From sequence record PQ850597.1: a stretch of 47,021 nucleotides of DNA. One strand, 5' to 3'. The DNA comes from Escherichia phage ChristineMuster_Bas80. The translations under genes and the position numbers were made by a program. Shown piece by piece: positions 19,673 through 20,549 of the stretch; within the stretch, counting starts at the first letter, position 1, and each line of letters starts with the position of its first letter. A model generated the notes under the pieces. That model searched no databases. It was not told the DNA's origin and was given only the letters and a program-made list of their open reading frames with translations.

Positions 19673-19792
19673 ATGGGTTCAACCAACTCACCATCTCGTT
19701 CGCGCGCTACTGGCAACACAAAAACTGGCGGCAAAACTGGCGTGGTGAAGCCAAACGGCTCTACCCGTTCACCATCGCGCGGTAAAAAATAA
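19673..19792 (+). CDS. Possible small basic Ser/Arg/Lys-rich protein (39 aa)
   Basis: ATG with GGAGA RBS right after promoter; ATGA-coupled to next ORF. Confidence 0.3.
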   Translation: MGSTNSPSRSRATGNTKTGGKTGVVKPNGSTRSPSRGKK

Positions 19793-20232
19793 TGTTCGGC
19801 GCAGATGTTGCCATCATGATCATGTATGTGCTTGGATTTGCCTGCACGGGCATGGTTGCGTTTCTGGTGTTCATTCCGGCAATGGTGATGTCTGTGTATC
19901 TTGGATGGGTGCTTGTTGATTCATTTCCCGCCGAATATCTGTATTACCTTGCGCAGTGTATGGTCTGGTTGTTTCCGGCTATTGCGCTGCGTAAAAGTAC
20001 AAAGATGGCGCTCTGCGTGCTGACGATGAGCCTTTACGAATGGCTGGTTGCGATAGAGTCATTCGTATGGGAATTTATCACGCCTGTAGAAACGCCGCTT
20101 CATGCGCAGTACGCATTTATTATTATCGGCATCCATCTGTTCATCCTTTCCATCACTTTTAAATGGGGCGGCGAAATTGGACATTATTCTTGGCGTGGTC
20201 GCCATTGTTTTTTCGCTGATTCAAGTCTATAA
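19792..20232 (+). CDS. Multi-pass membrane protein
   Basis: About five hydrophobic segments across 146 aa. Confidence 0.4.
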   Translation: MFGADVAIMIMYVLGFACTGMVAFLVFIPAMVMSVYLGWVLVDSFPAEYLYYLAQCMVWLFPAIALRKSTKMALCVLTMSLYEWLVAIESFVWEFITPVETPLHAQYAFIIIGIHLFILSITFKWGGEIGHYSWRGRHCFFADSSL

Positions 20233-20264
20233 GTGCTGGAAACATATCATCAGCGAGACACGCA

Positions 20265-20549
20265 ATGAACGAAACACTAAGGCAGGCAGCAGAGCAAGTT
20301 ATAAGCGGGACGACAGGACAGGTGATTGACAAGGCTGGATATGCCTCCATTGGTACTGGTATTGGACTGAAAGTTGCAGAGCAAACGCCTGTCATGCAGT
20401 CTTATTTTGAGGCTATGATTCCACACAGTCTGACGGAGTGGGCGGCAGTAGCGTCAATCCTCGGCGCCCTGTCTCTGGTAATAAAGAACCTCTTTGAAAT
20501 GTGGTGGAAGGTACGGGAGTCAAAAAAAAATGGCAGCACCAACACCTGA
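20265..20549 (+). CDS. Hypothetical protein with C-terminal TM segment
   Basis: 94-aa ORF, hydrophobic WAAVASILGALSLVI near C-terminus. Confidence 0.4.
   Translation: MNETLRQAAEQVISGTTGQVIDKAGYASIGTGIGLKVAEQTPVMQSYFEAMIPHSLTEWAAVASILGALSLVIKNLFEMWWKVRESKKNGSTNT

Follow-up and report, generated by a model that had tools for sequence, protein, structure and literature searches.

A candidate accessory membrane module with a hidden overlapping gene between the capsid and connector genes of Skate/E1-type siphophages

We analysed a stretch of 47,021 nucleotides (nt) from Escherichia phage ChristineMuster_Bas80 (PQ850597.1), here called the window, and concentrated on a group of small genes that directly precede its head-tail connector genes. 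A first-pass annotation, made from the sequence alone, had described three open reading frames (ORFs) there, a basic one of 39 amino acids (aa) and two membrane proteins of 146 and 94 aa. We refer to these as orf39, orf146 and orf94, and to a fourth gene, which overlaps the last two, as orf50 (Table 1). The best explanation of the locus is that the four genes form a conserved accessory set between the capsid and the head-tail connector genes of Skate/E1-type siphophages. About 190 phage records match the region with 80–96% identity, and the relatives are those of the Skate, Vi II-E1, seszw and BASEL Bas77–81 group, siphophages of 45–48 kb that infect Salmonella, E. coli and Klebsiella (for the placement of the Skate/E1/BASEL Bas77–81 group see PMC11990801). 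The three ORFs carry coding sequence (CDS) annotation in relatives, e.g. Bas78_0048–0050 and Skate_045–047, and are thus already annotated, as hypothetical proteins. What is new is the hidden gene orf50, the division of the set into a core and an optional pair, the removal of a lipoprotein label from orf146, the holin-like statistics of orf94, and the link to deposited mutant genomes.

Table 1 Features of the membrane module, its signals and the separate lysis cassette (positions in the window; TM, transmembrane)
Feature	Position	Strand	Remarks
orf39	19673..19792	+	39-aa very basic, disordered-looking peptide; PHROG 34767 (unknown)
orf146	19792..20232	+	polytopic inner-membrane protein of an orphan family; PHROG 14688 ("lipoprotein")
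orf50	20177..20329	+	new, unannotated; 50 aa, MDIILGVVAIVFSLIQVYKCWKHIISETRNERNTKAGSRASYKRDDRTGD; TTG start; N-terminal TM helix, then basic tail
orf94	20265..20549	+	94-aa membrane protein; PHROG 13738 ("membrane protein, moron"); remote similarity to phage 21 S holin
DUF7370 gene	20530..20922	+	PHROG 786; first gene of the connector module; overlaps the end of orf94 by 20 nt and bounds the membrane module
Extended -10 promoter-like element	19634..19642	+	TGCTAAAAT; rightward operon; sequence reading
Divergent sigma-70-like promoter	19597..19625	-	TTGACG-17-TATAGT; leftward ParB/methylase/RusA genes; promoter scan
orf39 Shine-Dalgarno	19660..19664	+	AGGAG, 8 nt before ATG; sequence reading
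Purine/G-rich block	20165..20176	+	GGGGCGGCGAAA; conserved; likely ribosome-binding region of orf50
Endolysin gene	8214-8678		lambda-R-like, soluble, without N-terminal TM
Annotated holin gene	8675-8914		79 aa, DUF7940; in the lysis cassette
Rz-like spanin gene	8895-9383		in the lysis cassette

The three ORFs lie at the coordinates that the first-pass annotation had given them, and the 39-aa peptide is identical to its text. In an alignment of 31 distinct relatives with 90–95% nucleotide identity, variable sites gather at third codon positions compared with the other two (16 vs 4–8 in orf39, 13 vs 2–5 in orf146 and 18 vs 1–3 in orf94). The rate of non-synonymous relative to synonymous substitution (dN/dS, NG86 method) is 0.08 for orf39, 0.13 for codons 1–128 of orf146 and 0.15 for orf94, and falls to 0.03 in the Gly-rich stretch of orf94 (codons 13–36). 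This periodicity, together with the low dN/dS, indicates genuine genes. Two of them, placed where the connector/tail operon starts, code for inner-membrane proteins, as had been proposed.

The gene boundaries had been considered uncertain, owing to an overlapping alternate frame at 20102–20329 described as hydrophobic. That frame is indeed open and hydrophobic; the uncertainty is explained by an overlapping fourth gene, orf50, and not by mis-called ends of its neighbours. Relative to orf146, orf50 is read in the +1 frame; it shares 56 nt with orf146 and 65 nt with orf94. Among the 31 relatives, third-position periodicity shifts to the frame of the 20102–20329 ORF between ~20180 and 20265, where the peptide LDIILGVVAIVFSLIQIYKCWKHIISETRNER is almost invariant while the tail of orf146 collects non-synonymous changes. 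For codons 2–29 the dN/dS is 0.2 in the orf50 frame and ~1.5 for the same bases in the orf146 frame. In the overlap with orf94 the constraint passes to the orf94 frame (0.2, compared with 2.7 in the orf50 frame), and the constrained core of orf50 is therefore, as read from these ratios, its TM helix and the W..II...NER motif that follows.

The start of orf50 is equally well kept. Its TTG stands 88 nt 5' of the orf94 ATG in 85 of 85 related loci, all of which have the frame open, and either GGGGCGGCGAAA or AAGGCGGCGAAA directly precedes it in the 85 loci. This purine/G-rich block is retained in Klebsiella phages, in which no other gene overlaps it. The TTG equivalent to 20177 is precisely where the ORF starts in phage CF-SP1, Yersinia phage P400 and Klebsiella phage KP591P3, and in Klebsiella-type phages such as KP591P3 orf50 is a free-standing ORF of 42 aa in DNA annotated as intergenic. 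The ATG at 20102 was rejected as the start, since the upstream part of the frame is not conserved and is missing in other clades. A tblastn search located orf50 in 202 records, and these are the records that also have orf94. In the tblastn matches shown, and in the records inspected, orf50 was never annotated as a CDS, the single "hypothetical protein" under a match being a minus-strand ORF, and the exact sequences of eight orf50 peptide versions were absent from a collection of 15 billion proteins. The architecture of a TM helix with a basic tail persists in the three most divergent versions, at 11–28% identity to the window protein. By these conservation patterns orf50 is shown to be a real fourth gene, with a predicted single-TM inner-membrane product, and all four genes, judged from their substitutions, are under purifying selection. 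Like Rz/Rz1-type genes, orf50 is a small +1-frame gene lying across the end and start of its neighbours, of a kind routinely missed by annotation; unlike them it has no lipobox or signal peptide, and would encode an inner-membrane TM peptide rather than an outer-membrane lipoprotein.

The AlphaFold2 model of orf146 (mean predicted local distance difference test, pLDDT, 75) has helices at residues 2–19, 23–44, 48–65, 70–95 and 108–136 and a disordered tail; TMHMM in the E1 record predicts four helices. The multi-pass protein of the first-pass annotation is thus, in the model, a five-helix inner-membrane protein. Family invariants include E83, E89 and H115 inside the helices and a TPVE loop. The tail after residue ~128 is unconstrained: in some clades a TAT-to-TAC change, synonymous in orf50, abolishes the orf146 stop and extends the protein to 158 aa, which again shows that selection does not act on the tail. 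We traced the "lipoprotein" label of orf146 to a PROSITE PS00013 pattern match in the E1 record. Cys18 is kept in only 5 of 16 family members, the others having F, V, L or I in its place, the N-terminal residues MFGAD include neither K nor R and so lack the basic n-region of a signal peptide, and the Cys18 segment is modelled as the first of the five helices. A lipoprotein is ruled out by the unconserved Cys and the non-basic n-region, and the label is, on this reading of the sequences, an artefact that has spread through PHROGs. A profile search of 1.84 billion representatives with the orf146 family returned only nine clusters, all from the same phage supergroup; word-indexed searches with orf146 and orf94 found close relatives only, without Pfam domains, and NCBIfam, PADLOC and PDB sequence searches of the module proteins gave nothing useful.

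orf39 is a cytoplasmic basic peptide with an isoelectric point of 12, nine K+R, no acidic residues and no hydrophobic segment. Its stop overlaps the orf146 start as TAATG. The C-terminal motif VKPNGSxRSPxRGKK is conserved, and indels among relatives are in-frame only, through gain or loss of a GNTKTG unit. The peptide contains repeats, GSTNSPSR near its N-terminus, GSTRSPSR near its C-terminus, and GNTKTG/GKTG in the middle. Counterparts precede the orf146 homologues in P400 and in four further loci (L121, L124, L130 and L133); those of distant lineages have a longer, acidic N-terminal part and retain a G-S-T-x-R-P-x-R-like ending.

The four genes are not distributed alike. orf94 was found in 204 records and orf50 in 202, compared with 102 for orf146 and orf39, none of them Klebsiella phages; the pair is present in O-antigen-dependent phages of Salmonella, E. 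coli and Yersinia. These counts show orf50 and orf94 as a universal core, and orf39 and orf146 as a separable pair that, by its phylogenetic pattern, was lost in the Klebsiella-infecting branch. In P400 the module lies directly 3' of the major capsid gene, with no minus-strand genes between. Two of the nine orf146 clusters come from metagenomic contigs (L130 and L133) in which the order is major capsid protein gene, a small ORF, a second small ORF ending in ...RSTQRPKRPS or ...TGSTGRPPR, an orf146 homologue, an orf50-like ORF, an orf94 homologue and DUF7370. The orf50-like ORF overlaps both neighbours there, and starts with TTG in L130 and ATG in L133. Both contigs keep the same four-gene order, and the module is therefore old. 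In the more distant DUF7370 phages Midgardsormr38, mEp554 and ENT47670, DUF7370 follows the capsid gene either at once or after no more than a small soluble protein, and there are no membrane genes at that position; the module is not connector machinery as such.

Genome-reduced mutants of seszw, a close relative of the window phage, were made in the CiPGr study (PMC9825161), and we read their lesions from the deposited mutant genomes. Mutants seszw_270L and seszw_60L carry a designed deletion equivalent to 19792–20224, which removes orf146 and the first 16 codons of orf50; seszw_60L has in addition a 1-nt deletion at codon 36–37 of orf94, a frameshift, and forms large plaques. In seszw_180S the deletion is equivalent to 19758–20349 and fuses residue 28 of orf39 to residue ~29 of orf94. 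All three are viable and form plaques. Salmonella records with orf94 number 128 vs 76 with orf146, and therefore about 50 sequenced mutants lack orf146. These genomes show that plaque formation does not require orf146, orf50 or orf94. None of the mutants examined had lost orf39 completely. Nearly all mutants retain orf94, or at least its C-terminal two thirds, and its loss may therefore carry a fitness cost.

Because mutants that lack or disrupt orf146, orf50 and orf94 are viable, a core connector, structural or assembly role for the module is refuted. Of the earlier idea of membrane proteins in a connector operon, the position at the head of the operon holds; a part in the connector machinery does not, given the viable mutants and the distant DUF7370 phages without these proteins. 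In another record, Salmonella phage PHA46_2 (PP216514.2), deletions equivalent to 19978–20104, 20339–20527 and 20554–20751 fall in orf146, orf94 and DUF7370 and leave a block with the whole of orf50, which could be biology or an assembly artefact. The DUF7370 gene of PHA46_2 lacks ~198 nt of its 5' half, and that of the viable seszw_180S has a 2-nt deletion near codon 23; this gene may be dispensable or internally re-initiating.

A promoter had been placed before orf39 by the first-pass annotation, and the sequence there, TGCTAAAAT, is an extended -10 motif: TGNTA(A/C)AAT is kept with constant spacing in 79 of 81 related loci, ~30 nt 5' of orf39, or 57 nt 5' of orf50 in Klebsiella-type phages. 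A -35/-10 scan does not pick up this element. From the motif we propose that a single sigma-70-type promoter of the extended -10 class drives the module together with the connector and tail genes. An RBS (ribosome-binding site) is annotated in phage Skate at the position of the orf39 Shine-Dalgarno sequence. A strong bidirectional terminator-like hairpin, AAAGCCCC...GGGGCTTT, at 23428–23447, just 3' of the major tail protein gene, is likely to mark the predicted end of the operon that starts at 19634.

orf94 consists of a Gly-rich, weakly hydrophobic segment (residues 24–38), a TM helix at about residues 59–77, in agreement with the C-terminal TM segment noted earlier, and a basic C-terminal tail. 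The Gly-rich segment is strongly conserved (GT.GQ.IDKAGY.SIGTG.G), S64, G67 and S70 are invariant in the family, and the charged tail, KVRESKKNGSTNT, with K82 and R84 conserved, is of the kind found in the phage 21 S holin (S21). PF04971, the S21 pinholin family, is matched by 10 of 19 orf94 homologues (best E 0.001) and is the only Pfam family that recurs. With hhalign, the orf94 profile aligned to a presumed S21 sequence over 60 columns, with a pairwise E-value of 8e-5 and a probability of 61%, covering both hydrophobic segments and the charged tail. None of 400 shuffled controls reached the score of 27.3: the 200 full shuffles gave 11.0 ± 2.4, with a maximum of 18.7, and the 200 that preserved blocks gave 12.0 ± 3.0, with a maximum of 26.7. 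Scores of 9–15 were obtained with lambda S, with the holin of the phage itself, with orf50 and with an unverified T4 Imm sequence. By this shuffle test, with the presumed S21 sequence, the similarity goes beyond composition and architecture. orf94 resembles S21 in size, in its Gly-rich first segment, in its second helix (WAA...LG.LSL) and in its K-x-R-E basic tail. It differs in an extra N-terminal extension of ~22 aa, a first segment that is short and polar, its dispensability, its sub-threshold match, the lack of GxxxSxxxG and of a dual start, having a single ATG, and its position, which is not by a SAR (signal-anchor-release) endolysin nor beside any other lysis gene. The profile evidence suggests a holin-like protein, possibly a remote relative of S21, and not a family member. 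orf94 is ruled out as the main holin: a viable mutant with large plaques carries a disrupted copy, and the lysis cassette has an annotated holin of its own.

From these data we tentatively propose, at somewhat less than even confidence, that the locus is an accessory inner-membrane module in which the holin-like orf94 and the single-transmembrane-domain (TMD) orf50 tune the timing of lysis. orf94 would be a diverged class II (phage 21 S-like) holin-type protein, with a SAR-like Gly-rich first segment and a second helix that forms a hole or oligomer, and orf50 its single-TMD partner or regulator. Both would act on the energised inner membrane and adjust the firing time of the separate endolysin/holin/spanin cassette, and the overlap of orf50 with the start of orf94 would fix the ratio of the two proteins. 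orf39 and orf146 may be an optional modulator of the same process, there being no better clue to their role. Such a function is plausible in that the module sits among late structural genes in P400 and L130, is non-essential, and has a close architectural parallel in mycobacteriophages; as it lies directly 3' of the major capsid gene in P400 and L130, late co-expression would follow. Phages D29 and Ms6 have non-essential pairs of a 2-TMD and a 1-TMD protein that set lysis timing, some of them encoded among structural genes (PMC6116114; bioRxiv 10.64898/2026.08.27.747656). orf50 and orf94 match such a pair in adjacency and architecture, and co-occur in 202–204 records; dispensability is seen in the seszw mutants. 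Ms6 Gp4/Gp5, D29 LysA2a/LysA2b and F1-cluster LysF1a/b likewise combine a class II holin-like protein with a protein that has a single N-terminal TMD and a charged tail; neither partner is individually essential, and together they set lysis timing. Here, in contrast, the genes overlap and the 1-TMD gene comes first, and the hosts of the mycobacteriophages are of Gram-positive type; the likeness is one of architecture.

Several observations weigh against this proposal. The candidate first TMD of orf94, AGYASIGTGIGLKVA (residues 24–38), is 60% Gly/Ala/Ser/Thr, and with ~15 residues and a 19-residue hydropathy maximum of 0.81 it seems too short and too little hydrophobic for a stable helix. The AlphaFold2 model of orf94 (pLDDT 59) is unreliable at residues 10–49 and too poor for a fold search. 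Against PF04971 orf94 scores 13.4 bits (E 0.077) at a gathering cut-off of 26, and all homologues fall below that cut-off. The GxxxSxxxG zipper of S21 is not kept, the aligned positions being A63xxxG67xxxL71, and both the alignment and the shuffle test used a presumed S21 sequence. The endolysin is lambda-R-like and soluble, so that a pinholin would not be its natural partner, and the conventional endolysin-holin-spanin cassette (7946–9383) lies 11 kb from the module. For orf146 and orf39, relatives of known function were not detected in these searches. Early expression from a sigma-70-type promoter is also conceivable, and would be a better fit to superinfection exclusion. The recurrent PF04971/S21 similarity of orf94 nonetheless lends the suggestion of a second holin/antiholin-like pair genuine, if weak, support. 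A broader version, in which all four proteins are one inner-membrane device conserved across the enterobacterial siphophage supergroup, seems doubtful to us; it would be a gated ion path or a sensor that couples virion assembly or membrane energisation to lysis timing, or to exclusion, with subunit ratios hard-wired by the overlapping reading frames.

The main rival is superinfection exclusion or an injection block, in which the small inner-membrane proteins would stop DNA entry by later phages of the same kind. T4 Imm and Sp and HK97 gp15 are small non-essential inner-membrane phage proteins; the module proteins resemble them in these respects, and differ in having no sequence similarity to them and a probably late expression context. 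Exclusion would suit bitopic or polytopic proteins that a phage can do without when it is grown alone in the laboratory, and whose genes come first after a predicted host-type promoter; it would also suit their lineage-specific presence, the module being missing from more distant DUF7370 phages. The restriction of orf39 and orf146 to O-antigen-dependent phages, to the exclusion of Klebsiella phages, also fits an accessory function specific to the host envelope. However, no match to an exclusion or defence family was found in Pfam, PHROGs (by function), NCBIfam or PADLOC, the position in P400 and L130 suggests expression too late to protect most of the infection cycle, and the only sequence signal is that of holins. 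We consider exclusion unlikely.

A role in morphogenesis, with the proteins anchoring or chaperoning head completion or head-tail joining at the inner membrane, would explain the fixed position of the module. Four or more lineages keep the order capsid gene, module, DUF7370, the start of DUF7370 is overlapped by orf94, and the in-frame fusion of seszw_180S keeps the C-terminal two thirds of orf94. This reading is nevertheless improbable, in view of the viable mutants without orf146 and orf50, the large plaques of the one with a frameshifted orf94, and the phages that have homologous connector genes and no module at all; moreover, siphophages are not known to assemble their connectors on a membrane.

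Two further alternatives concern orf50 itself. It could be a C-terminal extension of orf146, reached by +1 (or -2) frameshifting near 20165–20180 and adding a TM helix. The constraint on orf146 ends exactly where that on the orf50 frame begins, the junction GGGGCGGCGAAATTG is nucleotide-invariant, and TTG is a weak start codon. Klebsiella-type phages, however, keep orf50, its TTG and the upstream block without any orf146, in CF-SP1, P400 and KP591P3 an in-frame stop is followed by no start codon earlier than this TTG, the start of the L133 lineage is ATG, and on inspection the zero frame has no canonical slippery site, which makes frameshifting very improbable. It is hardly credible that the region of orf50 is kept for an RNA, or for a translational operator in the 5' leader of orf94, whose ribosome-binding region it covers, and not for a protein: the Klebsiella clade varies too little for dN/dS to be tested within it, but the frame is open throughout the 85 loci, cross-clade substitutions are mostly synonymous or conservative (dN/dS 0.2), the protein architecture outlasts the sequence in the most divergent versions, Rfam gave no match in the target region, and a hairpin at 20191–20204 is not conserved. 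This hairpin, TGGCGTGGTCGCCA followed by TTGTTTTTTC on the plus strand inside orf50, resembles a terminator; as it is not conserved in Klebsiella-type phages, an attenuator was ruled out, and it is probably a by-product of coding GVVAIVFS.

A lysis-tuning module at such a site would have parallels in other phages. In P2 the lysis genes Y-K-lysA-lysB-lysC lie between head and tail genes; the multi-TM LysA is non-essential and modulates timing, and one lysis gene is embedded in another frame. In P1, which has the accessory holins LydC/LydD, several holin-like proteins encoded in unlinked operons cooperate (PMC9025707), and in D29 one partner of the timing pair is encoded among the tail genes (bioRxiv 10.64898/2026.08.27.747656). 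Since lysis genes or their regulators are so placed, or unlinked, in P2, P1 and D29, membrane proteins among structural genes are not unprecedented. The likeness is to the membrane proteins inside the late structural block of P2 and to the unlinked holin-like operons of P1; no homology to P2 or P1 proteins was detected, and in the window endolysin, holin and spanin lie elsewhere, in the cassette described above.

For practical purposes, orf50 adds a conserved protein-coding gene to about 200 phage records, several of them candidates for therapy or biocontrol, and a misleading "lipoprotein" annotation that had spread via PHROGs is removed. The site tolerates deletion, which matters for genome minimisation and engineering of Skate-type phages. 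If the holin-like reading of orf94 is true, the module would be a second, unlinked membrane system for tuning lysis, paralleling those of mycobacteriophages and P1, and would offer a simple model of 2-TMD plus 1-TMD lysis regulation in Gram-negative hosts; otherwise it is an orphan membrane system that has been conserved.

On its 3' side orf94 is followed, in order, by DUF7370, a PHROG 797 protein, a Neck1/tail-completion protein and the tail terminator. Upstream, on the minus strand, lie a 120-aa ORF and genes for a ParB-like protein, a methyltransferase and RusA; in phage ASO78B a promoter is annotated at the place equivalent to the divergent promoter of Table 1. A 44-aa ORF with a GTG start (19536–19670, plus strand), which is a CDS in Bas78 (Bas78_0047), spans this divergent promoter region. 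Its variable sites number 8, 9 and 9 by codon position, and because third-position periodicity is absent it is probably a spurious gene call.

In the lysis cassette, a 92-aa ORF (7946–8224, plus strand) lies directly 5' of the endolysin gene, which is lambda-R-like and complete. The match of this ORF to the T4-type Phage_lysozyme domain is confined to the central part (profile positions 55–114 of 125), and it may be a remnant or a split gene. Two host labels among the relatives are probably due to mislabelling or contamination: OR544125.1, a record named 'Acinetobacter phage vB_AbaM_AB4P2', shows 93.6% identity to the present Salmonella/E. coli phage region, and one orf94 homologue (protein cluster P0051) bears a Staphylococcus aureus label. 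Within the plus-strand block of tail genes there is a minus-strand tRNA with anticodon CAT (22061–22137), which would read as Met, or as Ile after lysidine modification; it is annotated as tRNA-Ile in Skate, and relatives carry one to three tRNAs at this site.

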